A DNA stretch of 64,000 nucleotides, from the IMG/VR virus record IMGVR_UViG_3300033074_000961. One strand, given 5' to 3'. The stretch's first letter is position 1; every line of letters begins with the position of its first letter. A model generated the notes under the pieces. The model was not told the origin of the DNA. It saw only the letters and a list, made by a program, of their open reading frames with translations, and searched no databases. This document shows positions 2,724-62,298 of this stretch, one piece after another. This DNA comes from a virus (taxonomy: Duplodnaviria > Heunggongvirae > Uroviricota > Caudoviricetes). A program made the translations under genes and the position numbers.

Positions 2724-3686
2724 TTATTTGAAGAGTTCTGTAATACTATTGTTGTTGTGGGTTCCGAGGATAGCTTTACCAAACACGTCGGCAACACTTA
2801 CCACCGTGATGTACTCGGGAGTTTTCTTCATCCAATGGATTTCATCTTCCACAATTGAATCGGAGCAGAAGAAACGGGTGAATGTTCCCTTGCCCCAAGC
2901 TTCATGCAATCGTCCCGCACCCAACTCCGTAAGACAACCATGAGTCACGGCGAGATAAACATCCTTTGCCCCATTGTTCTTGCAACAATTGGCGGCACTA
3001 ATGAGAGTACCAGCAGACTCGGTAAGGTCGTCCAATACGAGCACGTTCTTGCCCTTCACGTCGCCCACGAACTGACTGACTTCAACATCAGTATCATTTT
3101 TGCGCTTCTTAACGATGAAGGCGAAGTCCACTCCATCCTTTTCTGAGAATTCCACTGCCTTTTTGATGCCTCCTGTGTCGGGAGCAACCACTACATCAAT
3201 CGAATACTTTTTCAATGCAGCGGAGAGAGTTGGTTGAAAGTAAAGGTGGTCCAGAGGAAGGTTGGTGAATCCTTGTACTTGCTGTGCGTGAAGGTCCATC
3301 GTAATGACACGATTGATTCCCGCAGCGGCAATAATATCAAGAACTAGCTTGGCAGAGATGGGGACTCGGGGTTTGTCTTTGCGGTCTTGGCGTGAATACC
3401 CAAGGTAGGGAATAACCGCAGTAATTCTGTCGGCAGAGGCACGGCGAGCAGCATCCGCCATGATAAGCAACTGCATCAGGTTATCATTGGCAGGTTGAGA
3501 AACCGCTTGCATCAAGAAAACGTCGGCACCCCGCACGTTCTCTTTCAGTTGGCAGTACCATTCACCCGAAGGAAACTGGTGATGATAGATTGCACCCCGA
3601 TTGATTGCATCGTGGCGAGCGGTTACGGATTTGGCAAGACGTTCACTCGCCTTACCAGCAAAGAGTACGCAACGTCGGTCTTTCAT
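2724..3686 (-). CDS. prs: ribose-phosphate pyrophosphokinase (PRPP synthetase)-family enzyme; could instead be an ADP-ribose pyrophosphokinase-type paralog
   Basis: Prs motifs DLHAQQVQGFF and VVAPDTGG; the 320-aa length is typical. Confidence 0.8.
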   Translation of the reverse strand: MKDRRCVLFAGKASERLAKSVTARHDAINRGAIYHHQFPSGEWYCQLKENVRGADVFLMQAVSQPANDNLMQLLIMADAARRASADRITAVIPYLGYSRQDRKDKPRVPISAKLVLDIIAAAGINRVITMDLHAQQVQGFTNLPLDHLYFQPTLSAALKKYSIDVVVAPDTGGIKKAVEFSEKDGVDFAFIVKKRKNDTDVEVSQFVGDVKGKNVLVLDDLTESAGTLISAANCCKNNGAKDVYLAVTHGCLTELGAGRLHEAWGKGTFTRFFCSDSIVEDEIHWMKKTPEYITVVSVADVFGKAILGTHNNNSITELFK

Positions 3687-3724
3687 GGTAGGTCAGTATA
3701 ACACACCCAAGATAATTGTCAAGG

Positions 3725-6647: not shown

Positions 6648-6931
6648 AGTTGTAAAATCAGTTTGTTGACAAAATCTTTTCTGTCCGCTTCATTCAAGTT
6701 ATCCGAGTATGGTATAATCTCAGGTGTGAATGAAAGCAGCAAGGTGCGAGTTATTTCTCTTGGGTCGCCACGCAATGCTGACATCGTAATCAAGGGTTTC
6801 CCTTGATACCACCACGTATCAGAATAAGTGCCCCACTTGCCAACCCAAGGTTTGTTTACAAAACCAAGTTCAGTTAGCAGTTCCGCCAACCTTTTCTTGC
6901 TTGTTTTTCTTTTTTGGTTTGCCATATTCAC
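6632..6931 (-). CDS. hypothetical protein
   Basis: 99-aa ORF. Confidence 0.35.
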   Translation of the reverse strand: MNMANQKRKTSKKRLAELLTELGFVNKPWVGKWGTYSDTWWYQGKPLITMSALRGDPREITRTLLLSFTPEIIPYSDNLNEADRKDFVNKLILQLCRGS

Positions 6932-7070
6932 AATCGGGACAAATGACTAGCGGCTCTCCGTGGTTATGAAGCTGCCAAGCGAGAATACGCCACTTGGCGT
7001 ACGAAATGTCTTTCGCATCACCGAATGACTGTTTCTCGCCGCACTCACAGCATTCCAGCTTCCAACTCAT
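6870..7070 (-). CDS. zinc-ribbon hypothetical protein
   Basis: CCECG...CPDCEYG. A σ70-like promoter lies immediately upstream. Confidence 0.35.
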   Translation of the reverse strand: MSWKLECCECGEKQSFGDAKDISYAKWRILAWQLHNHGEPLVICPDCEYGKPKKKNKQEKVGGTAN

Positions 7071-7077
7071 CGTTGCC

Positions 7078-7110
7078 AGATGATACCACGCTTCTACAAA
7101 AAGTCAAGCT
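7078..7110 (-). promoter_or_regulatory. σ70-like promoter (TTGACT-N16-TGnTATCAT) for gene 6870..7070; its -35 box is half of the palindrome AGTCAAGCTTGACT
   Basis: Read on minus strand: CTTGACTttttgtagaagcgTGgTATCATctggcaacgATG. Confidence 0.5.
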
Positions 7111-7138
7111 TGACTTGGAACTATTTATGGTGTATGAT
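7110..7138 (+). promoter_or_regulatory. σ70-like promoter (TTGACT-N17-TATGAT) firing divergently from the same palindrome; start codon lies about 7 nt after the -10 (leaderless)
   Basis: cTTGACTtggaactatttatggtgTATGATagcgacaATG. Confidence 0.45.
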
Positions 7139-7145
7139 AGCGACA

Positions 7146-7283
7146 ATGAAGAAATTGTGGGACAGAGTAAAGTGGATAGGTGAGTGCCTATTCGTCTGGT
7201 GTATATTGCTCCCCATAATGATAATCCTGATGCAATTGTGGAAAAAGGATTACGAAAAGATGACCGACAACCGCTATGATTGA
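7146..7283 (+). CDS. small membrane protein (probably leaderless; shortened from ORF 7080..7283)
   Basis: MKKLWDRVKWIGECLFVWCILLPIMIILMQLW hydrophobic helix. The ATG sits at the predicted transcription start. Confidence 0.35.
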   Translation: MKKLWDRVKWIGECLFVWCILLPIMIILMQLWKKDYEKMTDNRYD

Positions 7284-7572
7284 CCTGAATAAAGTTCGAA
7301 GCATCCGTGCCCTTGAAGGGATGAAGAAGGATTTGACCGAGTTCGCCACATTTGATCGAGCGATAATGGTACAGGTCTATGACGAACAATATGGTTGGGG
7401 CGAGGAAGATTACGAGGCAGACCTTGACCAAGTTAAGGAAATGCTTGAGAAGGTGGAGCGTCGTATCAATAGTCTTTCCAACTATTTGAATAAGCAAAAG
7501 GTTAAGGTGGATAAGAAGAAGCATGGACAATCTGGTGCATCGGAATCCCCAACCGCTTCACAATCTGCTTAA
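7276..7572 (+). CDS. hypothetical acidic coiled-coil protein
   Basis: Protein-like 98-aa ORF. The antisense ORF 7045..7530 is low-complexity. Confidence 0.4.
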   Translation: MIDLNKVRSIRALEGMKKDLTEFATFDRAIMVQVYDEQYGWGEEDYEADLDQVKEMLEKVERRINSLSNYLNKQKVKVDKKKHGQSGASESPTASQSA

Positions 7573-9369: not shown

Positions 9370-9698
9370 CGTCGTTTCCTTCCGAGACGCATAAGATTGT
9401 GCATCTGCTTTTGTTCAAATATCTTTACCTGCAAGTGATGCCCTTCCTTAAACCTTTCGTCGGGAGCAGCAACCGCAGCACCGTCATAAGCAGCAAGCAC
9501 TTTCCTTACAGTATCTACCTTAATGGCGGCGAGTTGTTGAAGTTTGAACAACAAGGTCTCCGTTTGAGATTTATTCAACCCACGATGGACACAATGAAGG
9601 GCAATCCTGTGTTCAGGACTGCCCTTCTTTAGCAAATCCCCAGCCACGGCAGCAACTTCGTACTCCCGTTCTGTTAGGGGTTTGGCGTACTTATTCAC
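9366..9698 (-). CDS. hypothetical protein with possible C-terminal HTH (LTEREYEV)
   Basis: Weak similarity to LuxR / sigma region-4 HTH. Confidence 0.3.
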   Translation of the reverse strand: MNKYAKPLTEREYEVAAVAGDLLKKGSPEHRIALHCVHRGLNKSQTETLLFKLQQLAAIKVDTVRKVLAAYDGAAVAAPDERFKEGHHLQVKIFEQKQMHNLMRLGRKRR

Positions 9699-10470
9699 GG
9701 CGGAAGGTTGGGATTGGGGCCAACTTGTGCAGAGTGGCAGCGTGCCGAGTCGTGTAGATTTCCAGCACTTGCTTCTGCCGAGGGGTTAATCCTTCAAGCA
9801 GGACCGTGGAGTAGCACCCCTTGCCATCTTCCACCCACTTCATTGCCCATTCCAGTTCCTCGTACGATGCACCAATGGCATCTTCATCCGTGCGGGTGTC
9901 CGCCCACAGACCATCCGTAGGAACTGCCTCAGAGAGTTCTGGCAGCACGCCCAAGTCACGGCACATCTGCCGCACTTCGGTCTTGGTCAAGTCGGAGATA
10001 GGAGAAATGTCCACACCACCATCACCATACTTGGTGAAGAAACCGATACCAAAGTCTTCCACCTTATTGCCGGTGCCTACTACGAACGCACCCTTGCAGC
10101 ACGCCACTTGATAAAGAGCAATCATGCGAAGGCGACTCTTCGTATTGGCAAAGGCAAGGTCATTGTTGTAGTCAATGCGGACTTCTTCACGAAACGCTTC
10201 AAACGTAGTCGTAAGGTCAATCTTGTGGAAAACTACATTGTTGTAGTTATCCTGCAACCAGTCAATGTGCTTTTCACCACGACTGGTTTGGTCGCCCTTG
10301 GTTTGACATGGAAGAATGACGCAGTGGGTCGGGAGTCCCGTCATTGCACAGAGGGTGGACACCAATGCGGAATCAACACCACCCGATACGCCAATTACCC
10401 AACCTTTGGCACCATTCTTTTTTGCGTAGTTATTCAACCACGCCACGATTTCATTTGCTAGTTCTTTCAT
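9691..10470 (-). CDS. nadE: NH3-dependent NAD+ synthetase
   Basis: PP-loop GVSGGVDSALV; 259-aa length and overall NadE architecture. Confidence 0.85.
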   Translation of the reverse strand: MKELANEIVAWLNNYAKKNGAKGWVIGVSGGVDSALVSTLCAMTGLPTHCVILPCQTKGDQTSRGEKHIDWLQDNYNNVVFHKIDLTTTFEAFREEVRIDYNNDLAFANTKSRLRMIALYQVACCKGAFVVGTGNKVEDFGIGFFTKYGDGGVDISPISDLTKTEVRQMCRDLGVLPELSEAVPTDGLWADTRTDEDAIGASYEELEWAMKWVEDGKGCYSTVLLEGLTPRQKQVLEIYTTRHAATLHKLAPIPTFRRE

Positions 10471-10471
10471 A

Positions 10472-10681
10472 TTAGAAACACTCCGTCTTTTTTGTTACAC
10501 CGAATTTCTTCATTGTTCTCTTCATGTCCGCAACCGCATCCCGCTTACGTTTGAAGGGAAGTCGGTTGGTAATCCACGCATCAGCAAACATACCGGGACC
10601 AAACCAAATGGGACATGCCCATTCCCATTGCCTATCAAGGCGACGGTTGAGGGTTCTGCGATAGGAGACAATCTCTTTCAT
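10472..10681 (-). CDS. hypothetical small protein
   Basis: 69-aa ORF between nadE and pncB. Confidence 0.3.
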   Translation of the reverse strand: MKEIVSYRRTLNRRLDRQWEWACPIWFGPGMFADAWITNRLPFKRKRDAVADMKRTMKKFGVTKKTECF

Positions 10682-11874
10682 GCTCCAATCTCCTGTAATG
10701 CCCGTTGAATTGCAGCGGCATCGCCTGTGTGCTTGCCAGCGTCATCCGAGAGCTTGACCACGGGAATCATACCTTGCCCGAAGTCAGCAGCAGTCAGTTT
10801 GATAACCATATTCAGCGGTTTGACTCCAACATCGTTAGTGAAGTTCGTTCCGATACCACCAACCGGCTGAGCAACTTTGCGATACTTATGGTCAATCGCC
10901 ACATAGTTGTAGTTTTTGCCAGCCATCACTTGGTCCTTCGGGGCAACCCCGAGACTGTCACTGAACACGAGACGCTTACCAATGGGATTGATACGCATAC
11001 GAGCGTAGAACGGCAGTACCTTATTGTCTGCCCAATCATAGGGTACACCCGAGTCTTGCCGCAGTCCATCGTACAGGTGAGCATCGTACTTCTCAAACTG
11101 ACGAAGGAAAAAGTCGGTCGTGAAAGTATCACTAAGAGATACACCAACATCACCCTCAAAGTGCTCTGCCCACACTTTGCGCCACATTTTGTCTGCCATG
11201 CGAACACCGTACAGTGCCGACATTGCCATAATGCATTCGTGGGCGTATGTGCCATGAGGGGTCACACCATACTTGAAAGCGAAATAGGGATTGCTCGTGC
11301 CGAGGAATCCATTAAGCATACGCATCTGTTTAACGACGGCTTCTTGAATCCTCTTGGCGAAACGACGGCGAGTGCCGAAGTCAATCCAGTGGCATCCCTC
11401 AGTCTGTAGGAGCACGCCTTTGTTCTCAATCCGTTGTTCCCACTCAGCATCGGGTTCTTGTCCCGTCATAATGAAATACAACTCGGAAATGATTGCCATG
11501 AGTTTGACTTCCCAGTAAATCGTGCGATACCACGGACCACGGATTTTGATACGAAGGTCTCCACCCTCTTGGGTAATGGTCACTTCATTGGGATTCATCT
11601 GATACCCATACAACCATTCAACATAGGTCGGGCGCATGTAAGGAATCTTCTTGAGCCAATCTGCCTCAAGATTGGTTAGACCAATGTGAGACAGCAAGTT
11701 GATTTGATGCTGTAGGTTTTCGGCAAACCCCTCGGGAAACTGAGTTTTGCCCCGGTTGAAGAAGGTGTACTCCACAATGGCACGGGGAAACATATGGAAG
11801 ACCACAGACCCCATGTTAATCTTGTAGAGGTCATCGTCCAACATGCTTGTGATAATCGGGCCTTTCACGTTCAT
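10678..11874 (-). CDS. pncB: nicotinate phosphoribosyltransferase
   Basis: DLYKINM N-terminus and GTSNPYFAFKYG region typical of PncB; 398 aa. Confidence 0.8.
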   Translation of the reverse strand: MNVKGPIITSMLDDDLYKINMGSVVFHMFPRAIVEYTFFNRGKTQFPEGFAENLQHQINLLSHIGLTNLEADWLKKIPYMRPTYVEWLYGYQMNPNEVTITQEGGDLRIKIRGPWYRTIYWEVKLMAIISELYFIMTGQEPDAEWEQRIENKGVLLQTEGCHWIDFGTRRRFAKRIQEAVVKQMRMLNGFLGTSNPYFAFKYGVTPHGTYAHECIMAMSALYGVRMADKMWRKVWAEHFEGDVGVSLSDTFTTDFFLRQFEKYDAHLYDGLRQDSGVPYDWADNKVLPFYARMRINPIGKRLVFSDSLGVAPKDQVMAGKNYNYVAIDHKYRKVAQPVGGIGTNFTNDVGVKPLNMVIKLTAADFGQGMIPVVKLSDDAGKHTGDAAAIQRALQEIGA

Positions 11875-11877
11875 GGT

Positions 11878-11912
11878 GTTATCCTATCACAGTGGTATAA
11901 AAAGTCAAGCTC
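11878..11912 (-). promoter_or_regulatory. σ70-like promoter (TTGACT-N16-TGnTAGGAT) upstream of pncB
   Basis: CTTGACTttttataccactgTGaTAGGATaacaccATG on the minus strand. Confidence 0.4.
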
Positions 11913-12204: not shown

Positions 12205-13925
12205 TTGCGTTTGATTTGATGAAAGCTGTTGCCATTGATAAAGAAAATGCCATCGCTGGTTGAGAACAACTTCATAGTGCTATCAAATGGAGGATTCTGC
12301 AACGTTTCAACCTGAGTGGCAGTGGCGAACAATTCCAATTCGTCGGGACTCGCCAGCAAAGCACACATACCATTCTCCATCACTGTGAAGTTGATAGTAT
12401 CATATGCCACGTCATCCACTTTGCGAACATCGCACGAGTTGTATGCCTTGTTGAAAATGATAATGAAGCGATCATATTGACCCTTCTTTTCACCGAGGAC
12501 CACAACTACATTCCGTTCTGCCTTGGCACCGACAATACGATACCCGTCCAACTGTGGGACGTGCTTGCTGAAACACGCACCTTGTTTGTATGGCAAGGTC
12601 AGATACATCTTGCCGAGCAAGTCCTGTACCACACAACCATCGTACATCTTGGAAGTAGTAACCGAGACGTTGGCAATTTCAATAGCACGACGAACCATTT
12701 TGTTGCCGAATGCCGTGAAGGAGTTCTCCATCAACTTACCGTGGGCAATGGTATAGATGCTGTTGTTCCTTGCGAACATTTCATTGCTCGTTGCCGTGCC
12801 AATAGGTTCACTAGCAGTAAGAGTCTTGAAGACTATCTTATTGCTATTGTCTTGTTGAGCAGTAATGAGAGTGCCATCCGATGCCGAGCAGAGAGTAATC
12901 TTCTTGGCATTATGCGTACCAATCTCTTTCTTGTTGGCATAGATATGGGTCTTAGTTGCCACGTAGTAGATGCCCAAGATTTGTTGAATTGCCAAGATAG
13001 GATTGGTATAGGCAGCGATTTCACTGACACCAATCTTATCCGTGCCTTGGATAGTGATAACTTGAGTGGGCACAAGCAAGGGCACACTACTATCTGCCAG
13101 CGGTGGAACACCACGCTCACCATTCAAGAACACTCGTTTGAACCAATCCAAGTGACGGCCCGGGATGACTTTGAAATCATTAACCGATGGAGGGACACGC
13201 ACTCCGCTATGGAATACGCTAATACCGTCGTCCATTTGCTTCGCCTTATCCTTGGGTTTGTAGTTGGGGTGAGTCCCACGATAAGGATGGATATTGGTAT
13301 AGAGCCAGAACGTCAGCACAGACCACGAGAACCAATCCGACTCAATGGTGGGATTGTAGTGCATAGTTCCACCCTTGTCAAAGGTAGTAACTTTCCTATC
13401 TCTCACCGAGTCCATAATAGCAGTTGCTCTGAACGATGGAGTGGAGTAACTATCCGTATCAATAAACCACGGCGTAAGATTGCTTCCCTTTTGTTCGGCA
13501 AGAATGTTCAACTCATTCAAGTCCACAATGAGACATTGAGCGGAGTGAACGTCGGCAACCACCTTCTGCATTTCTTTGACAAGGTGATTAACCATATGGA
13601 AGTCAATGTTGTTCGCATCCTTGAATGTGCGGGTGAAGAACTTCAAGAGCGGTTCAACGTTGTCCACGAAGCGGGTAGTGTACCCGAGCGGTTTGCCGTT
13701 CTTCGGGTCAAAGATGATTTCTTGTGGGATGACTACTTGGGGATTCTTAATCAATCCCAACTCCTGCATTTTCTTTGGCGGGAGCATCTTCTGGTCGGGG
13801 TCATGGTACAACTTATACGCCATGCCACTTTGGACATAGATTGCCGCTTCACCGCCAGCTGCCAAGTAGTTCTTGTCAGTAATGGTGATTACGCCACTGT
13901 TGCCTATTTTGACTTTCTGGTTCAT
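12201..13925 (-). CDS. protein-kinase-like (ePK/RIO/Kdo-like fold) protein with C-terminal extension
   Basis: Gly-rich loop AAGGEAAIYV, lysine in AYKLY, catalytic-loop-like IVDLNELNIL, FIDTDS (DFG-like). Confidence 0.5.
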   Translation of the reverse strand: MNQKVKIGNSGVITITDKNYLAAGGEAAIYVQSGMAYKLYHDPDQKMLPPKKMQELGLIKNPQVVIPQEIIFDPKNGKPLGYTTRFVDNVEPLLKFFTRTFKDANNIDFHMVNHLVKEMQKVVADVHSAQCLIVDLNELNILAEQKGSNLTPWFIDTDSYSTPSFRATAIMDSVRDRKVTTFDKGGTMHYNPTIESDWFSWSVLTFWLYTNIHPYRGTHPNYKPKDKAKQMDDGISVFHSGVRVPPSVNDFKVIPGRHLDWFKRVFLNGERGVPPLADSSVPLLVPTQVITIQGTDKIGVSEIAAYTNPILAIQQILGIYYVATKTHIYANKKEIGTHNAKKITLCSASDGTLITAQQDNSNKIVFKTLTASEPIGTATSNEMFARNNSIYTIAHGKLMENSFTAFGNKMVRRAIEIANVSVTTSKMYDGCVVQDLLGKMYLTLPYKQGACFSKHVPQLDGYRIVGAKAERNVVVVLGEKKGQYDRFIIIFNKAYNSCDVRKVDDVAYDTINFTVMENGMCALLASPDELELFATATQVETLQNPPFDSTMKLFSTSDGIFFINGNSFHQIKRK

Positions 13926-14701
13926 ACCACAATTGCCGCTACGGAAATATCGTCGGAATGCTTAATGCCTTCCTTCTCACATTTCCTTTTGAATGCCGCA
14001 AGACGACGGAGAACGAATTCGCCCTCGGTTGTCTTGTATCCCGTGAACTCGTCAACGAGGCTAGTCCATAGGATAGGTTCATTATCTGCACGACGAAAAC
14101 TATTGATACCATCCGAAATAACTGCAATGATGTCTCCCGGCTCCACGGTCGCATCAAAACTATATGGTTCAAGTGGCTTGGTGTTGACTTGAACAGTCTT
14201 GCCGAGGATAGTCACGGCGACTTCCTTCTTATTATCCTCTATGTTCTCGTAGGCTTGTCGCCTTAGAGGGTCAAGTTGATAAGCAAGGTAGTCAGGTGCT
14301 CCGCTAGTAAGATGGATATGGATACTATTGACGCCTAGTTTGGTTCTATGAACCAAGACACCATCACCATACATACGAGCAGTCAGTTTACCTTCCTTCA
14401 CCCACGCCACAAGCAACGTCGCATCCAATGCTTGAGAATGGAGATAAGGGAAGACATCAAATACTCGTTGGGCATTGTGGATAACATCCTGCCCCCACAG
14501 TTTGGCATCACTTTCCAATCCCAAACGAATCTGTCTCTTGGCAGACATGGCAAGACAACGAGCACCGAAGTCCACGTCGGGAGAAGCGGAGCATCCATCA
14601 CATACTACTGCATATGTCTTGCCTGCGATTTCCCCTGTGAGAGCATAGTCCTCACATACAATGTGGTCTTTGCCGATTTGATATGTACTGTTGGCGTTCA
14701 T
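13922..14701 (-). CDS. PP2C-family Ser/Thr protein phosphatase
   Basis: AVVCDGCSAS, VISDGI, DDISV metal-binding motifs. ATGA overlap with the kinase gene. Confidence 0.65.
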   Translation of the reverse strand: MNANSTYQIGKDHIVCEDYALTGEIAGKTYAVVCDGCSASPDVDFGARCLAMSAKRQIRLGLESDAKLWGQDVIHNAQRVFDVFPYLHSQALDATLLVAWVKEGKLTARMYGDGVLVHRTKLGVNSIHIHLTSGAPDYLAYQLDPLRRQAYENIEDNKKEVAVTILGKTVQVNTKPLEPYSFDATVEPGDIIAVISDGINSFRRADNEPILWTSLVDEFTGYKTTEGEFVLRRLAAFKRKCEKEGIKHSDDISVAAIVV

Positions 14702-17118: not shown

Positions 17119-17997
17119 TTACCAGTCAGTCGTGCGAGTGACCTTCATTCCCTTGCCAACCATTTCCTTCACGAAGTCCTGACCGAGCTTCTCAAACGTA
17201 CCCACGTTCGAGGACGTGTCTTCCAGAAGGGTGAACTTCTGAACTTGGTCAACGCCGAAGTTGGCGGCAATGTCACGGATGGTGTTCGCAACGCAGTGCG
17301 ACAATGCTTCACCCGTAATGAGGATTTCATCTGCCTCAGTAAGTGTATCAATGAGGGCAGTGTTGAGACCCGTGCTTGGGTCTTGGTCGTCCGGCACGTC
17401 AGCCATCACGCCCGAGTAGTGTTCCGTAAACAAATTGGAACCCTTGGCGACGAAGTTGACTCGTTGGAAGTCCGCTTCCCACTCATACAGAGCGGCGGCG
17501 ACAGACGGCACGATGGAGTGACCCCACGTACCAATGAGACAGTGCGGCGGCCAAATCACCAACACGTAGCGACCATTCTTCTTCAAGGTCTCCACGTAAT
17601 TGAGGGCACGGCCCTGCCACTTCGGATTGTAGGCACGCCACGTTCCATTCTTCACGTCATCCTCAGTAATGAGGGTGAAGGGATTGGGACGCTCGCCCTT
17701 GGAATTGACCCAGAAGGCGGGGTGAGCAATGTGTACCAACTGGTGAGAATCCAGTGTGCAGTGAATTTGCTCAATGCGTTTCTTGTTCTTGACGATGAAT
17801 TTCGCCAAGCGATCCATGTCCGCATCAGCACCAGCAACTACCAGTGCGCCTTTCTCGTGCCCGAAGCGTGCAGTTTTGGCGTCTGCCCCGGGAGCCAGCG
17901 GAATGCAAAAATCATTCTGCGGATCGATTGTTATTAGATGTACGTTTTTTGTTGCCATAACTATGTGTCTTTCTTGTTTGTTTTCAGTCCCCGACAC
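17119..17997 (-). CDS. pncA: nicotinamidase (isochorismatase family)
   Basis: LITIDPQNDFC signature of PncA-type hydrolases; catalytic Cys region HCL. Confidence 0.65.
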   Translation of the reverse strand: MSGTENKQERHIVMATKNVHLITIDPQNDFCIPLAPGADAKTARFGHEKGALVVAGADADMDRLAKFIVKNKKRIEQIHCTLDSHQLVHIAHPAFWVNSKGERPNPFTLITEDDVKNGTWRAYNPKWQGRALNYVETLKKNGRYVLVIWPPHCLIGTWGHSIVPSVAAALYEWEADFQRVNFVAKGSNLFTEHYSGVMADVPDDQDPSTGLNTALIDTLTEADEILITGEALSHCVANTIRDIAANFGVDQVQKFTLLEDTSSNVGTFEKLGQDFVKEMVGKGMKVTRTTDW

Positions 17998-18014
17998 GGG
18001 ACTAAAGTGTTTGT

Positions 18015-18944
18015 TTACGGTAAGCGTAGTATCTCATTGTTGAAGTAATCGTTCAACATATGGAGCAGCGGACGATGGTTTTCCGAAACCTCCGCTTCGC
18101 TTAATTCTGCAAAGTTTTTCCAAGTGACATACTCAATGTCATCTGCCGCCTTGGGTGTACCGCCATTGTATTTCAATACGAAAAGGGCGGTCATAATCTT
18201 GTCTTGCTCCGAGCGGTAACGCCAATCATTAACGAAAGTGCTACCAACATACTTCGGTTCAATCACGTCAAGTCCCGTCTCTTCTTTGACTTCACGGATA
18301 GCTGCCTCTTCCATGCTCTTATCTTGAGCGGGGTCTGTGAACCCACCGGGGAAGCAGAGGGTAGAACGATTGGGTTTACGAGCAAGTAGAAGGCGTTTGT
18401 TATCGTAATCAATCACCGCCATGTCCACTGTCAACTTGAACGATGGGAATTGATTTTGGACTGCGTAAACAATACCTTCACGAAAGTCTTGGGTGGGTTT
18501 GGCCTTGATGCCGATGCGTCGGCGAATTTCACTCGCCGAAATGAATTTGCTAGGCACAAGTTCAATGGTGGGAAACCCACCCTTGTAGGAATTGATGAAA
18601 CTATCCCGACTGCCATACATGACCGCTTTCAATTTGGGTCCGATGGTCTGCGAAATGAGCTTGTCAAGGTTCTTGCTCCAAAGGTCGTTGTCGCCAACGT
18701 CATTCAGATAGAGAACTTCAACATCCCGATACTTTTCCTCAACCATTGCCTTGCGGATGCCGAAGTCAAACGGGTTGTTGGCAGTACACTTGAGCGGGGA
18801 TAGACCGAGAACGATGATTACTCGGGGATGGGCGTTGCGGACAATCTCGATGATTTCTTGATGTCCCTCGTGGAGGAATGGCGATTGGAATCTCGCCACA
18901 ATAACGCCAACGTCTGCATTTTGTTCAGTCACTTTCATAGTCAC
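18015..18944 (-). CDS. nadM: bifunctional NMN/NaMN adenylyltransferase – Nudix (ADP-ribose pyrophosphatase) NadM-type
   Basis: N-terminal ARFQSPFLHEGH (HxGH NMNAT motif as in NadM). C-terminal Nudix box REVKEETGL. Confidence 0.75.
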   Translation of the reverse strand: MTMKVTEQNADVGVIVARFQSPFLHEGHQEIIEIVRNAHPRVIIVLGLSPLKCTANNPFDFGIRKAMVEEKYRDVEVLYLNDVGDNDLWSKNLDKLISQTIGPKLKAVMYGSRDSFINSYKGGFPTIELVPSKFISASEIRRRIGIKAKPTQDFREGIVYAVQNQFPSFKLTVDMAVIDYDNKRLLLARKPNRSTLCFPGGFTDPAQDKSMEEAAIREVKEETGLDVIEPKYVGSTFVNDWRYRSEQDKIMTALFVLKYNGGTPKAADDIEYVTWKNFAELSEAEVSENHRPLLHMLNDYFNNEILRLP

Positions 18945-20253: not shown

Positions 20254-20288
20254 ATACTTTACTTCATGTGGTATAAAAAGTCAAGGGG
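20254..20288 (-). promoter_or_regulatory. σ70-like promoter (TTGACT-N17-TAAAGT) with a short leader
   Basis: CTTGACTttttataccacatgaagTAAAGTatcgcactATG. Shares the 18-mer GTGGTATAAAAAGTCAAG with the pncB promoter. Confidence 0.4.
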
Positions 20289-22771: not shown

Positions 22772-22802
22772 AGTCGTATCTTACTTGGTTTTGGTGTTTT
22801 TG

Positions 22803-23024
22803 TCAAATACTTTCTTCGGTTTCGGGAGGGAAGTTGTCTTGAATGACTGTCTTGTGGACTCTACTCACACAAGAAGGTGGGAAGAAACCGCCATTCCGAT
22901 TGATGAAAATGACACCATACTTGTCCACCATTTTTCGGTCGTGTCCGATAGTGTTGTCCTGATGCCCAAGGTAAGACCAATAAGTGCATCCACTCGTGTT
23001 TGTAATGAGCAAGTATGTTTCCAT
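22803..23024 (-). CDS. hypothetical protein
   Basis: 73-aa ORF. Confidence 0.3.
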   Translation of the reverse strand: METYLLITNTSGCTYWSYLGHQDNTIGHDRKMVDKYGVIFINRNGGFFPPSCVSRVHKTVIQDNFPPETEESI

Positions 23025-23056: not shown

Positions 23057-25480
23057 TCAAGCGGCAACTTCGGACTCTTCAACTTTCTCTTCCACAACGG
23101 GTTGTGGAGGAGCTGGCGGGGTCATGTCCCGAGTCAAGTCAATGAACAAGTCCATTGCGTTGACATACTTGGCGACTTTCGCCGCTTCTTCAGGCTTGGC
23201 ATAGTAATCGTTTTCCAAGTTGCTGAAATTGATATAAGGATACATGGCTTTGGCATCTTCCGTAACTTTCTCAAAGTCAATCGTGCCCACAGTCTCACCC
23301 TTAACCTTATCCCAGTAGTGCAGCTCCTTGAGGGCATTCACCAGCTTGAGATAGTTGTCATAATTTTTGTCGCTTCCCGTAGCGATAAGTTTCAACATGA
23401 GACTGTTCTTGTCCATGATTTGTGGAATAAGCAAATCTGCCCACGCCTTTTCAACTACCGTGCTACCATTGAATGCTTCGGCATCCACGAGAGAAGAAAC
23501 ATTCGTGATACCGGGAAGTGCTTCTTCAATGACAGACCAAACGTTGGTCCAATCGCCACAAGAAACCGCTTCCTTGAACCATTTCGCTTCACTGGTTTGC
23601 TTGCCCACGATGTACACCCGAGGCACGTCCAGACCAAGTTCATCCACCAGAACCTTGATGGCTTCGGCAACTTCGTCAGCATCCCGATGCCAGCCATTGC
23701 TCAACTTAACCGTAACACTCGGGTCTTCGGAAGTGTGCCAGCGACGACGGCGACGAGCACGAGTAACTTCACCAATCTCCACGAAGTAAGCACCCTCTTC
23801 GATTTCACGAATGGGCACTTCCATTTCTTCAACGGAGACTTCACCATCAAAATCCATATAACGGAGCGTGCGAGTACCCCCGCCACCGCCACCGTAGGAA
23901 CGAGACACTTTGTTGACATTATTCCACGTTTTCGCAGCGGGAAGGATTTCAGATAGAATCAACACGGGCACAGTATCAAAATGATACTCTGCGAAGAAAG
24001 CATCCCGCACAGTCTGGTTGACGAAGTTGAGGACATGCACCGTGCGAATCTTGGAACCATCCTGAAGAATGAGATACCTAGCGGCAACGGACTGTCCATA
24101 CTTCGCACCAGTATCATTGATGATAACAGCAACTTGATGGGAAGCAACGATGCGGTTGGCACTTTCAGAAGTGCAACGATTCATCTTCGCCCGTTTCTTC
24201 TTCTTGCGATACGTCACCATCACGGGGATAGACGGATTGTGCTTGTGCTTCTGAATGCCGGGGAAGTTAGTGACATCATTATCAAAACGATTGATGCCAT
24301 TAAATCCAGCGTCGTCAATCACAATATCGTTCCACTTGAATGACCCACGGAAGTTGATCTCGATGGACGTGAGATTGCCATCCAAAACCTTAATGCGCTC
24401 AATCGTGTCGGCATCCTCGCCTTTTTCCAGCTCAAGCATACCCGTGCCGAAAAGGGAGTTGTAAATCATTTTCGCTTCCCACACGGTCTTGGCATCGGCG
24501 AACTTCGCTTGGAAGGACTCCTGAATCTTAGCGAAGATGCTTTCAATGCGGTCCATGAGTGCCTTGATAGTGAAGTCGGTGTACTCAAGGGACTCCCGAG
24601 AGTCAACGAACTGAACTTCACCCATCTTGAAGAACAAGGTCACGTCATTGTTCTGGAGAAGGTCAAAGAGACAACGCTTTTGAGCAGTCAGAGACATGCG
24701 CTTGCTAAGGACGTTCCAATCAATACGGTAAGGAACACCGCCCATGAATGCCACGCCCACGGCAGAACCTTCCGAGCGAGGGCGAACGTTCCAACCCTCG
24801 CCTTGCAACGTCGGCGGGGTATTGCGGAATTTCATCATACGATTGAAATGGCTGTCTTCCAAGCGATTGATGGTAGGGAGGACTTCCCAATACTTAAAGT
24901 AATCGGCAGCCTCTTGATGGAAAGTCCACAGAGAAGATTGCTTCACGGGGATGCAGACTTCAATGCCAGAGGGTTCATCCGAAGGAGTGCGGGACAATTC
25001 ATAGACCGTGTGAAGTTTGGTGGAGTCGCCCTTGACACAGTTGTAAACAGCCTTCTCACCATTCACCCAAGACGTAACCGTGAAAGAATCGGCATGAGCA
25101 AATCCTGCCTTGCACCCGTAACCGAGTACGCCGTTCTCGGCAGCAGAGTTGCGCTTGGTGGACAATCCCATGACGCAATAGATGCCACGGATTTGGTCCT
25201 TGGTCAGTCCAGAACCGAAGTCACGGACTTTGAAGGTGAAATCTTCCATCGTCGGGAGAGTAACGATGACTTCGGAAGTTGGTTTGCCAGCGACAATGTG
25301 AGCATCGTTGGCGTTGTTGGAGTATTCACGGACAGATGCCAGCTCTTTGCGAGTGTACATCTTATCCGAGAGGGATTGCATGATACGGGCCTTGGTGTCA
25401 TCCGTAAAGTCGAAGTTTCCAACCACTTCAACCCCCATACCTTGCGTTTCAATCGTTTGCGGCGTTTCGTTCGGAATCAT
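23057..25480 (-). CDS. rIIA: rIIA-like protein with N-terminal GHKL (Bergerat-fold) ATPase domain
   Basis: N-box SNNANDAH, G1 VRDFGSGL, G2 LGYGCKAGF; 807 aa. The pattern matches my recollection of T4 rIIA (ITNMIDAH / CRDFGPG / FGLGSKSPF). Confidence 0.55.
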   Translation of the reverse strand: MIPNETPQTIETQGMGVEVVGNFDFTDDTKARIMQSLSDKMYTRKELASVREYSNNANDAHIVAGKPTSEVIVTLPTMEDFTFKVRDFGSGLTKDQIRGIYCVMGLSTKRNSAAENGVLGYGCKAGFAHADSFTVTSWVNGEKAVYNCVKGDSTKLHTVYELSRTPSDEPSGIEVCIPVKQSSLWTFHQEAADYFKYWEVLPTINRLEDSHFNRMMKFRNTPPTLQGEGWNVRPRSEGSAVGVAFMGGVPYRIDWNVLSKRMSLTAQKRCLFDLLQNNDVTLFFKMGEVQFVDSRESLEYTDFTIKALMDRIESIFAKIQESFQAKFADAKTVWEAKMIYNSLFGTGMLELEKGEDADTIERIKVLDGNLTSIEINFRGSFKWNDIVIDDAGFNGINRFDNDVTNFPGIQKHKHNPSIPVMVTYRKKKKRAKMNRCTSESANRIVASHQVAVIINDTGAKYGQSVAARYLILQDGSKIRTVHVLNFVNQTVRDAFFAEYHFDTVPVLILSEILPAAKTWNNVNKVSRSYGGGGGGTRTLRYMDFDGEVSVEEMEVPIREIEEGAYFVEIGEVTRARRRRRWHTSEDPSVTVKLSNGWHRDADEVAEAIKVLVDELGLDVPRVYIVGKQTSEAKWFKEAVSCGDWTNVWSVIEEALPGITNVSSLVDAEAFNGSTVVEKAWADLLIPQIMDKNSLMLKLIATGSDKNYDNYLKLVNALKELHYWDKVKGETVGTIDFEKVTEDAKAMYPYINFSNLENDYYAKPEEAAKVAKYVNAMDLFIDLTRDMTPPAPPQPVVEEKVEESEVAA

Positions 25481-25542
25481 AGCGTTTTGTTTTTGTCGTG
25501 TTGTTATGACTGATTTCGGGTCAGTCGTTTCTTATTACGCTA

Positions 25543-25574
25543 CAACTATAGCATACCCATTGAGGATGTCAACA
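25543..25574 (-). promoter_or_regulatory. σ70-like promoter (TTGACA-N16-TATAGT) with upstream A/T tract, ahead of the rIIA-like gene
   Basis: ctttttttattttcgctgTTGACAtcctcaatgggtatgcTATAGT on the minus strand. Confidence 0.45.
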
Positions 25575-31228: not shown

Positions 31229-31316
31229 ATGTCTAAGTAGTACGAGGAAATGAAAATCCCTCAGTGTAGTGGTATTCTACACCGAGGGATTGAAACAGTC
31301 AACTTATTATAACCAC

Positions 31317-46185: not shown

Positions 46186-47193
46186 TTACTTTCCAGCGAT
46201 GGGTTTCATGCCCGAACGATGGCGTCCGAACACCTTTTTACGCAACTCCACAATTGTATCACAAAGGTCTTCCTTGCCATACTGCGGACGGGAGTTCACG
46301 TCTCGTGCAATCAATCGCTTAATGAATGCACACATTTCTTCGGGTACATCTTTAGGCACCATCTTACGCTCAACGTATTCTGGACCACCCGATAAAGCAT
46401 AAATCATCGTCATTCCAAGACTGTAATAGTCAGACTCGGGAATGAGGGGTTTGCCAGCTATTTCTTCGGGAGGGGCAAAGTAAGGAGTGAACCCCTTTGC
46501 TTCGGCAGAACCCGTGGGTTTCACCATTGACAAACCGAAGTCCACCAGAACTGCCATGTGCCTATCCTCTTGCACGATGATATTCTGGGGTTTCAAATCG
46601 CCATGCACCACGCCATGACGATGAATGTAATTAAGAGCATTGAGGATTCTTTCAGTAATCCACGCAACGGTTTCTGGTTCCATTGCTCCTACTCGTTTCA
46701 CTTCTTTCTCAAGAGTGAGACCGGGAATGTAGCTCATGACGAGCAGTACCCGTCCATCTTCCAACTTATACAAATCCCTCATGGCGGGGAGAGCGTAGTG
46801 TCTCAAATCCCACAACACTCGGCACTCTTGAACAAGCATATCCACATCATCCAAAGAGACGTTAGAGCAGTCTTTGATACAGACCAATTCTTTGAGAATG
46901 GAATGCTCTGCTTTGTAGGTGCGACCAAACCCGCCTTCGGCAATAACAGATTGAACTTTGTAAGGTCCAATTATCTTGGTAGTGCCTTCGATACGTTCAC
47001 GGTCAAAATCACGACGCTTACGGGGGTCGGTAAGAATGTCATGTGCTTCGTTGAGGGAACGGGCATGAGACCCCACAGTGGCATGGTCTAAATCAGGATG
47101 ATGTTCCTTCATTAGTGCCCGATATGCCGCCTCAATCACTGAGGGACTTGCTTTCGGGTGGACTTGGAGGACTTGATACCAGTCGTTTTTCAT
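46186..47193 (-). CDS. J-domain (DnaJ) – Ser/Thr protein kinase fusion
   Basis: N-terminus DWYQVLQV...MKEHHPD (J domain with HPD). Kinase HRHGVVHGDLKPQNII, DFG, APE-like PPE. Confidence 0.65.
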   Translation of the reverse strand: MKNDWYQVLQVHPKASPSVIEAAYRALMKEHHPDLDHATVGSHARSLNEAHDILTDPRKRRDFDRERIEGTTKIIGPYKVQSVIAEGGFGRTYKAEHSILKELVCIKDCSNVSLDDVDMLVQECRVLWDLRHYALPAMRDLYKLEDGRVLLVMSYIPGLTLEKEVKRVGAMEPETVAWITERILNALNYIHRHGVVHGDLKPQNIIVQEDRHMAVLVDFGLSMVKPTGSAEAKGFTPYFAPPEEIAGKPLIPESDYYSLGMTMIYALSGGPEYVERKMVPKDVPEEMCAFIKRLIARDVNSRPQYGKEDLCDTIVELRKKVFGRHRSGMKPIAGK

Positions 47194-47225
47194 TGTGGCG
47201 ACATATTATACCACAACCAGCGTTT
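47193..47225 (-). promoter_or_regulatory. consensus σ70 promoter (TTGACA-N15-TGgTATAAT), short leader to the J-kinase operon
   Basis: CGCTTGACAaaacgctggttgTGgTATAATatgtcgccacaATG on the minus strand. Confidence 0.5.
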
Positions 47226-47380
47226 TGTCAAGCGGATATTTTTAATCGCCTCGTTGATCGGCATCTCGGGCAGTTAGCCAACCCACATTCCATTCACCAC
47301 GAGCATCTTCATCAGGATAATCGGGGCAATCTTTTTGAGGCACACCATCAAAATACGCTTTGAATCCAGCATCCCACGCT

Positions 47381-48915: not shown

Positions 48916-48947
48916 GTATTATACTCCTTTGTTGGGAAAAGTCAAGC
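48916..48947 (-). promoter_or_regulatory. σ70 promoter (TTGACT-N16-TATAAT), leaderless
   Basis: aagCTTGACTtttcccaacaaaggagTATAATacagtATG on the minus strand. Confidence 0.5.
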
Positions 48948-52514: not shown

Positions 52515-53599
52515 ATACTTTCTGTTGTTCGGGTTTGTTCAAGATACATACGTGTTATCACGAGATAGCTGTTCGTATCTTCAACGAAAATACTACTAGA
52601 TGCAGCCCTTGACGTTGGCAACCTGCATTAAGCGTTCCTGCTGTACGCATCTAAAATTGGGCTAGGTCCAGACGTTTACTGTTCGTCCTCAGAGCACTAT
52701 GAGATTTCTCCTAACTGAATAGGTGGAGTATGCCAGTATCTCCGTTCTTTTTTCATGGTTAGATGAATTTAGTTTTGTTGCTGTACGGACCTAAATTGAT
52801 TGTAGCGTTGGTATCGGCATTTACCTTACCGAAAGTCCCTTTTTCACGGACTAACACTACGAAATTCAAAGAACAATCTACAAATTCAAGGGGTTTCAGT
52901 AAAGAAACCCCAAACAAGATGTCAGGATTTACCGTTGTCTCGGTGGCGTGTTTACGTCTGCCCTTGACGAGTGCTCCGAAAACTAACTCTCTATCGGGCA
53001 CTACTCCGAGGTCTTTTGGGACCGGGAACCACCCCGTAGTCTTGTCAACCGTTGACTGGACGGTTTGCTGCAAAGTCAATTGGTTACACAGTGCAGCCGC
53101 TTGTTCTCTTTTTTCTTTTATTTATGTCTTGCTGTGACGACATCTTAATTCAGCAAACCACTCGGTCTGCCGAAAGTTTGAAAGAACAACGAGATGCCTT
53201 TGCTTTTTCAATAGCGTATGCTGTACGCATCTCAAATCATTGTGGCGAGAAGTATATCACACTCGCCGAAATTGTCAAGCCCTACTTCAAACTTTTTTCA
53301 ACAGAGTTTGTTTTGGGTCCAAGTAGGTAATGGCGTCATCCAATTCAAGTTGAGCGTCCACGACCTTACTGGCAAACAACGCATTGTGATTCTTTCCGCT
53401 ATTCAGGCGCAAAGCATCACCCATCAAACGGTCTGCTTCGAGCAGGAGCGAATGAATCTTACGAGCACGTTGTTTATCGTTCATTGTGGAGCAAACAATA
53501 CCACAATACTGTGAACTTGTCAAGAGGGATTTTAGCGTTCTCTCTTATTGGGAGACTTCGGGTCTCTGAGGATAAGTATATGCCAAAAACCAAAAACGA

Positions 53600-54385
53600 T
53601 TATTTTTTCGTTTTTCTTTGAGAGTATGGTTTGTCCACATTATGCAAGTTCTGTTCTGCACACACCCGCTCGACATCATTCGAAATTGATTGAAGTCTCT
53701 GCTTTGCTAATTCGACATAAGTATCGTTAACTTCAATGCCCACGTAGTTATGGTCCATTGCTGCCGCAGCAACAAGAGTGGTGCCGATACCGCAGTAAGG
53801 GTCAAGCACGTTCAATCCTCTGCGTTCATCGGCAATGCTGTAAATACAACGCACTGGTAATTCAATAGGAAATGGTGCGGGATGTTCCTTGAATCCACTC
53901 TCGGGGCGGATACGCCAAATGGAAGTCATCTTGGCATGTCTGCTTTCCAGTTCATCACCTTTGGTCAATCCCTTTTGCATCCAATAGATTCTTTCTTCAA
54001 CTTGCCAGAATCTCCATCCTCTTACGTTGCCAGCAATGATTCTATCCCAAATGAGTTCTTGGCGAATGCCCCACATGGTTTTGTTCAACCAATCCAACGG
54101 ATGAATCATCTTACCATCTTGCCAACGGAGTTTGTGGTTGTAGAAGATATGCCCTCCCGGCTTGGTGACTCTCCACAACTGGTCCAACACTTGCACTTGC
54201 TGCTTCTGATACTCTTCTTCGGGCATGTTATCAGAGTGAACACCATATTCAACTTTGCCCACCAACTCCCCCGATACTTTCTGCTTATTGTATGGCGGCG
54301 AGGTAACGGTGATGTCAAAAAAGTCATCCTCAAACTGCCGCAGTACAGTAACAGCATCCCCAACGTAAATCTTGTTGTTATCCAT
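53600..54385 (-). CDS. DNA methyltransferase, β-class amino-MTase (SPPY motif IV before FxGxG motif I); N4-C or N6-A
   Basis: VTSPPY then DPYCGIGTT. Confidence 0.65.
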   Translation of the reverse strand: MDNNKIYVGDAVTVLRQFEDDFFDITVTSPPYNKQKVSGELVGKVEYGVHSDNMPEEEYQKQQVQVLDQLWRVTKPGGHIFYNHKLRWQDGKMIHPLDWLNKTMWGIRQELIWDRIIAGNVRGWRFWQVEERIYWMQKGLTKGDELESRHAKMTSIWRIRPESGFKEHPAPFPIELPVRCIYSIADERRGLNVLDPYCGIGTTLVAAAAMDHNYVGIEVNDTYVELAKQRLQSISNDVERVCAEQNLHNVDKPYSQRKTKK

Positions 54386-54454
54386 TATGACCCAAATTTT
54401 ATACTACAATGAGGCAAACGTCAACTTATAATAAGTTGACCTATCATATGTTAT

Positions 54455-55276
54455 GTGGCATACTCGTGGGCGATGATACAATTGTTCAACGAGGACTTCC
54501 TCAAGGCAGATTTTACTTCCATCCCACCAATCAATTTGGTGGTAACGTCCCCGCCGTACAATGTAGGCATTGAATATGACAAGCATGACGACACAATGAC
54601 CTATGAGGAATATCTTGTTTGGTGCAAAAAGTGGATTGCTAAGCTTTATTCATTGATGGCGGATGACAGTCGTATCTGCATAAACATTCCATTCTCCATT
54701 ACACCGATTCACTTGAATAAAGTCAAGGGTGCCGAGGACATCAACTACCCCGTATCAGCAGACTACACCGAAATCTGTCAGGAAGTAGGATTCAAATACT
54801 ATCGTAATGTCATATGGCAGAAGTTAGGAAGCAATAAGACGTGTTGGGGAAGTTGGCGGTCTGCCCGTGCTCCTTTCATCATTGACCCCAACGAGTGTAT
54901 CCTTATCTTTTACAAGGGGAATTGGAAGCGAAAAGAAAAGGGCAAGTCCACCATTCGTGGTCGTGAATTCATGACTTATGTAAAGAATCTGTGGCACATG
55001 CATCCCGAGACACAATCCAAGCATCCCGCAGCCTTTCCGTTGGAACTACCGAATAGGTGTATCAAACTTCTATCCTATGAAGGAGACCTTGTGTGTGACC
55101 CATTCTTAGGGTCTGGCACAACAGGCGATGCCGCAGTCAGATTGAAGAGAAGTTTTGTAGGTGTGGAGAAGAGCGAAGAGTATTTCAAAATGGCAAAAGA
55201 AAGGATTGATACAGCAGAAATTCAAACTTCTTTGATTGCATCAATCATGCCAGATGGTGACGAAGATGATGATTGA
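54455..55276 (+). CDS. DNA methyltransferase, β-class amino-MTase (second SPPY enzyme)
   Basis: VTSPPYNVG then CDPFLGSGTT. Confidence 0.65.
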   Translation: MAYSWAMIQLFNEDFLKADFTSIPPINLVVTSPPYNVGIEYDKHDDTMTYEEYLVWCKKWIAKLYSLMADDSRICINIPFSITPIHLNKVKGAEDINYPVSADYTEICQEVGFKYYRNVIWQKLGSNKTCWGSWRSARAPFIIDPNECILIFYKGNWKRKEKGKSTIRGREFMTYVKNLWHMHPETQSKHPAAFPLELPNRCIKLLSYEGDLVCDPFLGSGTTGDAAVRLKRSFVGVEKSEEYFKMAKERIDTAEIQTSLIASIMPDGDEDDD

Positions 55277-59377: not shown

Positions 59378-59409
59378 TCTTGACTTTTTTTAATCGTGTG
59401 GTAAGATGT
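59378..59409 (+). promoter_or_regulatory. σ70 promoter (TTGACT-N16-TGgTAAGAT), 9 nt before the ATG
   Basis: ctcTTGACTtttttTAATcgtgTGgTAAGATgtcagcaatATG. Confidence 0.45.
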
Positions 59410-59416: not shown

Positions 59417-59620
59417 ATGGCAGAACCAACACGTAAAAGTTACTCGCTTCGCCAAGCAATCAATGCTTTCGCAGGCGTAGATACCGAGCAATCCATCCGC
59501 AACGACACTTGTACCATGTGTCGGAAACCCGCACTTGCCTTCAAAGATGAACTAAGCAAGAAAGAGTTCACCATCAGCGGCATGTGCCAAGAGTGCCAAG
59601 ACAAAGTTTTTGGCTCTTGA
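59417..59620 (+). CDS. small zinc-ribbon protein
   Basis: CTMCRK...CQECQD. Confidence 0.4.
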   Translation: MAEPTRKSYSLRQAINAFAGVDTEQSIRNDTCTMCRKPALAFKDELSKKEFTISGMCQECQDKVFGS

Positions 59621-59655
59621 CAACTGACGATAAAACGCTAAACTCAAGCACAATT

Positions 59656-61598: not shown

Positions 61599-61677
61599 CA
61601 TTTTCCACGGGTGATGTATAATAACCCCGTAACGTTGGAAAACAACAAACGACAACAACAAAATCAAATAGAACCAT

Positions 61678-62298
61678 ATGTGCAATCAAGCAAATGTTCC
61701 GTCCGTAACGCTCCAGACCGCCGTGCTCATGCAGGTGAAGGAGTTTGCCCAAAACTCTCAGCCGTTCAGCGTCCATGATGTGACCCGCAACCTTCGGATG
61801 AAGACCTCCCAAGGGGAGATCGAGATTCCCGAAGTGGAAGTGCAGGGTGCGTCTTTCCGTTTTGACATCCCCCACGTCAAGGTGAAGGGCATCTTTGACG
61901 AACTGTGGCGTACTGGTGTCTTTGACCCCGTGTTGACCCTCAACCGTACCTTCAACGGCACGTATTTTGAGTACACCCCGTCTCTCGTCGCTGGTGCTGC
62001 TCCTTCTGTGACCGTTACCGCTCCCCCCGTGACTCCGACTCAGACCGTGAGTACGCCGTCTGCCTCCCCGACTTCCGGTCCCGTGTCCGACTCGGTAGTT
62101 CAGAGCCGCATCCAGACCTATCTGGACAACTGCCAGTCCCGTAACTTCCGCCCGACCCTCAAACAGGTTCAGTCTGCCATCAAGCGTGACGTGAGCACTG
62201 GTTGGTCCTGTGAAAAGATTCAGGACTACATCGAAGGTCTCGGTTACTCCGTGGTTGCCGACCCCGATTACGTGTCTGCCTCACAAGTGGCACTGTAA
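61678..62298 (+). CDS. hypothetical protein with Pro/Thr/Val-rich linker
   Basis: 206-aa ORF. Confidence 0.45.
   Translation: MCNQANVPSVTLQTAVLMQVKEFAQNSQPFSVHDVTRNLRMKTSQGEIEIPEVEVQGASFRFDIPHVKVKGIFDELWRTGVFDPVLTLNRTFNGTYFEYTPSLVAGAAPSVTVTAPPVTPTQTVSTPSASPTSGPVSDSVVQSRIQTYLDNCQSRNFRPTLKQVQSAIKRDVSTGWSCEKIQDYIEGLGYSVVADPDYVSASQVAL

Follow-up and report, generated by a model that had tools for sequence, protein, structure and literature searches.

A perfect palindrome between two divergent genes, such as the one found near position 7,100 of the DNA stretch analysed here (64,000 nucleotides of a Caudoviricetes virus, IMG/VR record IMGVR_UViG_3300033074_000961, hereafter "the window"), raises two questions. 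Is it a regulatory site in its own right, or simply what one obtains when two promoters of the same family are packed back to back, and what kind of messages would such promoters produce?

A first, sequence-only reading had described a 14-nt palindrome supplying the TTGACT -35 boxes of two divergent promoters with extended -10s. The 14-mer, AGTCAAGCTTGACT, is indeed present at 7102-7115, but the perfect symmetry includes one more base on either side, and the true palindrome is 16 nt long (AAGTCAAGCTTGACTT, 7101-7116; a single copy in the 64-kb window). It consists of two -35 hexamers on opposite strands, back to back and 2 bp apart, with GC between them. In the rightward promoter (matrix score 18.1, see below), TTGACT at 7110-7115 (+ strand) is followed, after a 17-nt spacer, by the -10 hexamer TATGAT at 7133-7138. 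In the leftward one (score 24.4), TTGACT at 7102-7107 (- strand, reading from 7107 to 7102) is followed by TTTTGT at the start of a 16-nt spacer and by TGG-TATCAT at 7080-7088. Both resemble promoters of the sigma-70/sigma-A type, with a -35 identical to TTGACA at five of six positions and a TAnnnT -10 within the usual 16-18 nt (TATCAT at 16, TATGAT at 17). The description of both -10s as extended holds for the leftward promoter, which has a canonical TGn, but not for the rightward one, in which GTG directly abuts the hexamer instead. Only 7 nt (AGCGACA) lie between the rightward -10 and the ATG at 7146, and 9 nt (CTGGCAACG) between the leftward -10 and the ATG at 7070; the promoter elements thus fill the entire region upstream of both ATGs, with no Shine-Dalgarno (SD) sequence and no room for one.

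Are these two promoters isolated curiosities, or members of a family? The sequence-only reading had proposed that related promoters recur in the window, and their frequency is clearly above the background expected from base composition. The motif CTTGACTTTT is found five times exactly (0.39 expected) and 17 times with at most one mismatch (6.45 expected), and the two-hexamer pattern TTGACN-N16-18-TANNNT is found 35 times, against 7.4 +/- 2.7 expected from 200 second-order Markov simulations. If the latter must also be followed, 4-12 nt further on, by an ATG with which an ORF of 40 aa or more begins, 17 cases (about 15 of them distinct) are left, versus 0.29 expected by chance. A matrix trained exclusively on 32 promoters from related phages, and then run on the window, retrieves 19 sites with scores of at least 14 (1.0 expected) and 14 sites with scores of at least 18 (0 expected). 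All in all, the matrix table lists about 24 good promoters in the 64-kb window, and for 17 of them (about 70%) the ATG is located 5-11 nt past the -10, precisely the range first proposed; there, as had also been claimed, no SD precedes the start, the -10 being too close to the ATG for a leader or an SD. A minority of family promoters (at 25572 for rIIA, 36415 and 61595) have leaders of 20-65 nt.

The family is somewhat broader than first proposed. Four of the five relatives originally named are of the CTTGACTTTT type (with -35 boxes at 11908, 20284, 48945 and 59380), but the one that precedes 47193 reads CTTGACAAAAC; similarly, the proposed family motif CTTGACTTTTT does recur, but the family also takes in TTGACA promoters devoid of a T-tract. 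The 18-mer CTTGACTTTTTATACCAC said to be shared by the pncB promoter and the promoter of the gene starting at 20247 is exact in both (11892-11909 and 20268-20285), and is simply the -35 box plus the conserved T-rich start of the spacer. The latter, TTGACWTTTTATA, was not found in a literature search, and a string search of the literature for the promoter motif returned nothing relevant. In the family logo, an A-rich patch precedes the -35 by about 7-10 nt and a C directly abuts the hexamer; then come TTGAC[A/T], the T-rich spacer start, TGTGG (a TRTGn motif) and TAtaaT. Around the -35 hexamer, the consensus is cTTGACTt, with C before the hexamer in 31 of 47 promoters and T after it in 27 of 47.

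The individual promoters illustrate how tightly they are joined to their genes. The pncB promoter (CTTGACTTTTTATACCAC..TAGGAT, 11881-11908, - strand), conserved in five relatives, places its -10 only 6 nt before the ATG (11874), the same distance as in the rIIB promoter (22778-22806, -). The distance is 8 nt for the promoter with the pncB-type 18-mer at 20256-20284 (-; gene start 20247) and for the prs promoter (3695-3722, -), whose orthologue in a 401-kb contig also has 8 nt. It is 5 nt for AGCTTGACTTTTC..TATAAT (48918-48945, -), and 9 nt for CTTGACTTTTTTT..TGG-TAAGAT (59380-59407, +), which has the best matrix score (31.1). The promoter that combines TTGACA with TGG-TATAAT (47205-47231, -; ATG 9-11 nt past the -10) serves a gene encoding a fusion of a DnaJ domain with a Ser/Thr kinase (46186-47193), a fusion which has in this way its own promoter of the leaderless type; a PP2C-like phosphatase is encoded at 13922-14701.

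Some family members depart from this scheme. Two leadered promoters, those of rIIA (25480-25545, -) and of the gene at 61678 (61622-61678, +), are followed by A/C-rich, SD-free leaders (AACAACACGACAAAAACAAAACGCT and CAACAACAAAATCAAATAGAACCAT, respectively) which look like unstructured, SD-independent translation enhancers. Another promoter at 53251-53278 (-; score 24.5) is followed by ATGATTTGA, which is an ORF of only two codons, where a gene would be expected; its transcript may be non-coding or have a leader, or the site may represent a decayed gene start. Finally, a 15-nt-arm hairpin (AATCCCTCAGTGTAG / CTACACCGAGGGATT, followed by TTTTCATTT; 31255-31302, -), located just downstream of a gene for an SPFH-domain protein, is probably an intrinsic terminator, and the promoter-like match TTGACT..TAGAAT that overlaps it may therefore be coincidental.

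The comparison with related phages adds much to this picture. We used seven IMG/VR loci, on contigs of at most 138 kb with 35-47% GC, in which a 237-aa protein encoded close to the site has 65-70% amino-acid identity, and a further relative, L033 (CACVFR010000001.1, GCA_902730405.1), an assembly contig of 401.5 kb with 51% GC. The same promoter type, abutting start codons, is common to all these eight uncultivated phage contigs (35-51% GC, up to 401 kb). The most common distance between -10 and ATG in the relatives is exactly 6 nt (14 of 32 promoters), with a spread of 5-11 nt in the window; a spacing of 6 nt would make the A of the ATG coincide with the canonical +1. In the pncB promoter, compared between six genomes, the -35, the spacer TTTTA and the TA..T of the -10 are invariant, although the flanks have diverged. 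The encoded proteins begin only 4-8 residues before a conserved PIITSxLDxDLYK motif, so that their N-termini are pinned to this motif, the start codon is fixed and no room is left for a leader.

The window itself belongs to this clade. In L033, Prs is 70% identical to that of the window, the order pncB-nadE-...-prs is kept, and both the promoter type and the divergent pair are present, which indicates that our phage is part of a clade whose members have very different genome sizes and GC contents (35-51%). Two candidates were set aside: L008, a relative at 33% identity that is without this promoter architecture, and LR756511, the source of the best phage match for pncB, which does not belong to the clade, since its pncB is an internal gene with an AAGGG site and without such a promoter. 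The contig of 78 kb that contains L005 and L006 (IMGVR_UViG_3300025162_000043) has ends that appear to share roughly 4.8 kb in inverted orientation, as judged from identical promoter-match positions up to about 4757 in the two loci; this reflects either an error of assembly or long terminal repeats in inverted orientation.

The divergent pair is kept at the orthologous place, with the zinc-ribbon gene on one side and, on the other, the gene for a small MKK(L/F) membrane protein followed by p98. In the window, the rightward unit encodes a 45-aa hydrophobic protein (MKKLWDRV..., 7146-7283, +; ATG 7 nt past the -10), which has orthologues in L003, L005, L009 and L033, and then a 98-aa protein, p98 (7276-7572, +), whose ATG overlaps the upstream stop and which is conserved in six relatives. 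The leftward gene encodes a 66-aa zinc-ribbon-like protein of the CxxC...CxxC type with a basic tail (6870-7070, -; ATG 9 nt past the -10), with orthologues in six relatives whose alignments begin at residue 1-3. Neither PHROGs nor Pfam has a family for the genes flanking the palindrome. The arrangement is not identical in every relative, since L001 and L009 have an extra gene after one of the paired promoters. The gap between the two -35 hexamers also varies: 2 bp in the window, 8 in L009, 14 in L001, 21 in both L004 and L005, 23 in L033 and 25 in L007. The proposal of two divergent promoters of a recurrent family is thus strengthened, both by the excess of such promoters over chance and by the recurrence of the architecture at orthologous genes in eight diverged relatives.

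Does the palindrome do anything by itself? It had been suggested that it doubles as a repressor or activator site, and the main alternative is that it is an operator, bound by a dimeric regulator of the phage or its host (the 66-aa zinc-ribbon protein, for example) that would repress or activate the two promoters together; this could coexist with the promoter reading. The dyad is perfect over 16 nt and spans both -35 boxes, and a small basic zinc-ribbon protein is encoded right beside it, although this protein matches no PHROG family. However, two copies of cTTGACTt, the family consensus, suffice to explain all 16 bases, the central GC giving each promoter its preferred C before the -35, so that the palindrome arises automatically when two such promoters are packed 2 bp apart, and no symmetric position is left beyond the promoter consensus. 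The focal 14-mer dyad has no copy in any of the relative loci, and in their paired promoters the symmetry never reaches more than 1-2 nt beyond the hexamers. Furthermore, no palindrome is formed at 11908 and 48945, where AGCTTGACTT half-sites also occur. Because the pair is conserved and the gap at the orthologous place varies from 2 to 25 bp, we think that the palindrome is a by-product of tight packing rather than a conserved operator; the regulatory role once suggested for it finds no echo in the relatives, and we consider it unlikely.

A further argument in favour of an operator comes from a second divergent pair, located between two DNA methylase genes (54396-54464; ATGs at 54385 on the - strand and 54473 on the + strand). 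There, the -35 boxes are 11 bp apart inside a palindrome, GTCAACTTAT-A-ATAAGTTGAC (54420-54440), whose symmetry reaches 4-5 nt beyond the hexamers. Unlike the dyad at 7101-7116, this one possibly is a real operator for that very reason, and it could be, for instance, the controller-protein box of a modification system. The methylase gene on the - strand occupies 53600-54385; the one on the + strand probably starts at the ATG 54473, and not at the GTG 54455.

If the focal site is a pair of promoters, what do the messages look like? The sequence-only reading had deduced leaderless or near-leaderless mRNAs from the closeness of the -10 to the ATG. This prediction gains from the conservation and the fixed N-termini described above, and from a signal at the start codon itself: a pyrimidine (C or T) immediately precedes the ATG in 19 of 19 promoters with a spacing of 5-6 nt (p = 2e-6), versus 15 of 28 with longer spacings. 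This fits the preference of start sites for a pyrimidine at -1 and a purine at +1, with +1 on the A of the ATG, and represents independent evidence, at the level of sequence, suggestive of true leaderless transcripts. All start codons of the family are ATG, and orthologues from the zinc-ribbon/small membrane protein/p98 region align from residue 1-3. The two focal promoters, with A and G before their ATGs and spacings of 7 and 9 nt, fall outside the exact 6-nt class, and for them leaders of 1-4 nt are therefore likely. How efficiently such near-leaderless messages are used depends on the host. Over their first 36 nt, the predicted leaderless messages are weakly folded (-3.1 kcal/mol versus -5.3 kcal/mol for internal windows of the same genes, p = 2e-7), which is consistent with leaderless initiation without being discriminating, since genes led by an SD typically have little 5' structure as well.

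The remaining genes of the window do not seem to rely much on SD sequences either. SD-like tetramers (AGGA, GGAG or GAGG at -20 to -4) precede 13 of 60 ATG genes, compared with 5.8 +/- 2.3 at random positions. Both this scarcity and the favoured context of ATG genes in the window, with T at -1 in 35/60 and A at -3 in 31/60, are similar in L033, and such an unusual start-codon context may be a clue to the host. The SD-poor, A-rich start contexts had suggested promoters of the Bacteroidota type (-7 TAnnTTTG), a possibility that was rejected because only 28 are found, for 38.5 expected.

A sceptic could argue that the promoter-like sequences are not functional starts, the genes being read from longer upstream transcripts with SD-independent initiation or coupling, and the closeness of -10 and ATG having some other cause. 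Most internal genes of the window are also without SD, so that SD-independent internal initiation must exist, and some strong family promoters (25572, 36415, 61595) do have leaders of 20-65 nt. But the association of promoter, adjacent ATG and ORF (17 cases for 0.29 by chance) remains to be accounted for, both hexamers are conserved while the flanks diverge, and without a transcription start at the A it is difficult to account for either the 6-nt mode or the 19/19 pyrimidine rule. We regard this alternative as very improbable. As for a structural role of the palindrome (as a cruciform, as an intrinsic terminator of read-through transcription, or, given the AAGCTT within it, as a target for recombination or restriction), it is hardly credible: the - strand can form a hairpin, AAGTCA-AGCT-TGACTT followed by TTTTGT, but its stem has only 6 bp with two G-C pairs and is not called by a terminator scan, so that we reject the terminator and cruciform readings, the palindrome lies upstream of both predicted start sites and is not conserved in relatives, and Rfam finds nothing in the window.

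We thus favour, with good confidence, the idea that the site is a compact bidirectional promoter region for the housekeeping sigma factor, one of a clade-wide set, predicted to yield leaderless or near-leaderless messages. In this scenario, sigma-70/sigma-A type promoters (TTGACT, 16-17 nt, TAnnnT) placed back to back in an uncultivated large phage would be used by the host RNA polymerase, which would start about 7 nt past each -10, i.e. near 7073 for the leftward promoter and near 7145 for the rightward one, which puts the two starts about 72 bp from each other. Before the AUG, the rightward message would then have 0-1 nt and the leftward one about 2-4 nt, and both would be translated by direct binding of ribosomes to the 5'-proximal AUG, and not via a Shine-Dalgarno interaction. 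The pair would belong to about 24 strong promoters of the window, of a design common to a whole clade of related phages. Statistics and conservation support this promoter and leaderless interpretation well. The T-run of the leftward spacer reads AAAAA on the other strand (7097-7101), and would fall about where the A-rich upstream patch of the family lies for the rightward promoter. Interference between two polymerases is plausible, since upstream DNA would be shared. One of the two focal promoters could even be weak in practice, because two polymerases may not fit when the -35 boxes are 8 bp apart centre to centre.

Both mechanisms, housekeeping-sigma phage promoters and leaderless mRNAs, are already known, and it is instructive to confront our locus with known systems. 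The closest geometric analogue is the PR/PRM pair of lambda, in which promoters are likewise back to back on opposite strands with starts less than 100 bp apart (about 72 bp here, as predicted). The lambda start sites are 82 bp apart. However, PR/PRM is built round three CI/Cro operators, whereas no conserved operator is detectable here. In lambda, the cI mRNA made from PRM has the AUG at its very 5' end and undergoes leaderless translation (PMC10491246). It is one leaderless transcript, whereas both messages of our pair are predicted to be leaderless or nearly so, and our phage, which is large and apparently lytic, has dozens of such promoters, this arrangement being one among them.

In the Thermus phage phiYS40, middle and late transcripts are leaderless and made by the host RNA polymerase (PMC3594737). 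The resemblance is that phiYS40, too, is large, and that the bulk of the messages in entire temporal classes are devoid of a leader; protein and near-kin searches revealed no sequence relationship between the two. Sevostyanova et al. (2007) reportedly found that the promoters of these middle and late transcripts have no -35 and depend on an extended -10. In our phage, on the contrary, the -35 is near-perfect and the genes around the promoters are of early type.

Leaderless genes of bacteria are recognised by a Pribnow box that precedes the start codon by 6-8 nt (PMC6028130), and they are common in Actinobacteria and Deinococcus-Thermus (PMC6028130; PMC9031893). These bacteria form group C of GeneMarkS-2, in which the -10 lies 6-8 nt before the first gene of the operon (PMC6028130), in agreement with the mode of 6 nt in our relatives and of 6-10 nt in the window. 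Unlike in our phages, the remaining genes of group C use SD sequences; here the internal genes are SD-poor (13/60), with A at -3 and T at -1. Moreover, the -35 hexamer of our phages is far stronger than usual for actinobacterial promoters. The early promoters of T5, T4 and SPO1 are near-consensus and present in many copies spread through the early regions. Early promoters of these phages and the Gram-positive-type TRTGn "-16" motif offer a parallel to the near-consensus hexamers, the A-rich patch upstream of the -35 and the TGTGG before the -10 seen here, but their mRNAs have leaders and contain SD sequences.

To which organism do these promoters belong? The window is phage-like in its content: rIIA, rIIB, a PARP-like protein, ligase, thymidylate synthase and Thg1, and also the DnaJ-kinase fusion, PP2C, three DNA methylases and polynucleotide kinase. 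It encodes an NAD set (regions 2724-3686, 9691-11874, 17119-18944 and 59584-60918) composed of prs (ribose-phosphate pyrophosphokinase), nadE (NAD synthase), pncB (nicotinate phosphoribosyltransferase), an isochorismatase-like protein and a NUDIX/cytidylyltransferase-like (adenylyltransferase-like) protein, with a PARP-like/WGR protein alongside. The early timing proposed for the promoters is plausible, judging from the presence in the window of rIIA/rIIB and of genes for nucleotide and NAD metabolism. A near-identity search against isolated phages gave no match. Protein searches (with rIIA, a Ro-like protein, pncB and a 2900-aa concatenate of eight orphan proteins) gave at best 27-48% identity, with scattered phages and huge-phage assemblies, and revealed no cultured relative and no clue to the host. 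Bacterial genomes scanned with a profile of the 237-aa neighbour protein contain homologues with at most 45% identity (Microvirga and others), with no prophage or host among them, and a tRNA scan of the window found none.

What is new is the lineage and the extent of the phenomenon: most promoter-proximal genes are concerned, in a clade reaching huge-phage size and with SD-poor internal genes. The palindrome itself is without special significance, and the single locus is of moderate-to-low interest, the clade-wide style of expression being somewhat more interesting. In practice, gene callers that expect a ribosome-binding site will misplace starts in this clade, for which starts and the limits of operons can be placed exactly by combining the promoter matrix with the 6-nt rule. 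The pattern of signals (consensus -35/-10, TRTGn, leaderless first genes, SD-poor internal genes) is a usable clue for host assignment. The clade also offers a natural set of strong promoters for leaderless messages or messages with leaders of 1-4 nt, which could serve to test the effect of leader length on leaderless translation, and its divergent pairs, with graded gaps of 2-25 bp, could show how near to each other two polymerases can work on common upstream DNA.

Finally, one may tentatively go further and imagine that the whole clade (contigs of 78-401 kb, 35-51% GC) expresses nearly all its promoter-proximal genes as true leaderless mRNAs, made from consensus housekeeping-sigma promoters, and the rest without SD, i.e. 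a genome-wide SD-independent programme, an idea that is for the moment doubtful. If it were true, this programme could mark an unrecognised host group or a strategy of translation takeover similar to that of phiYS40, and the tightest pair, with -35 boxes 2 bp apart, could be a switch based on the mutually exclusive binding of two polymerases.
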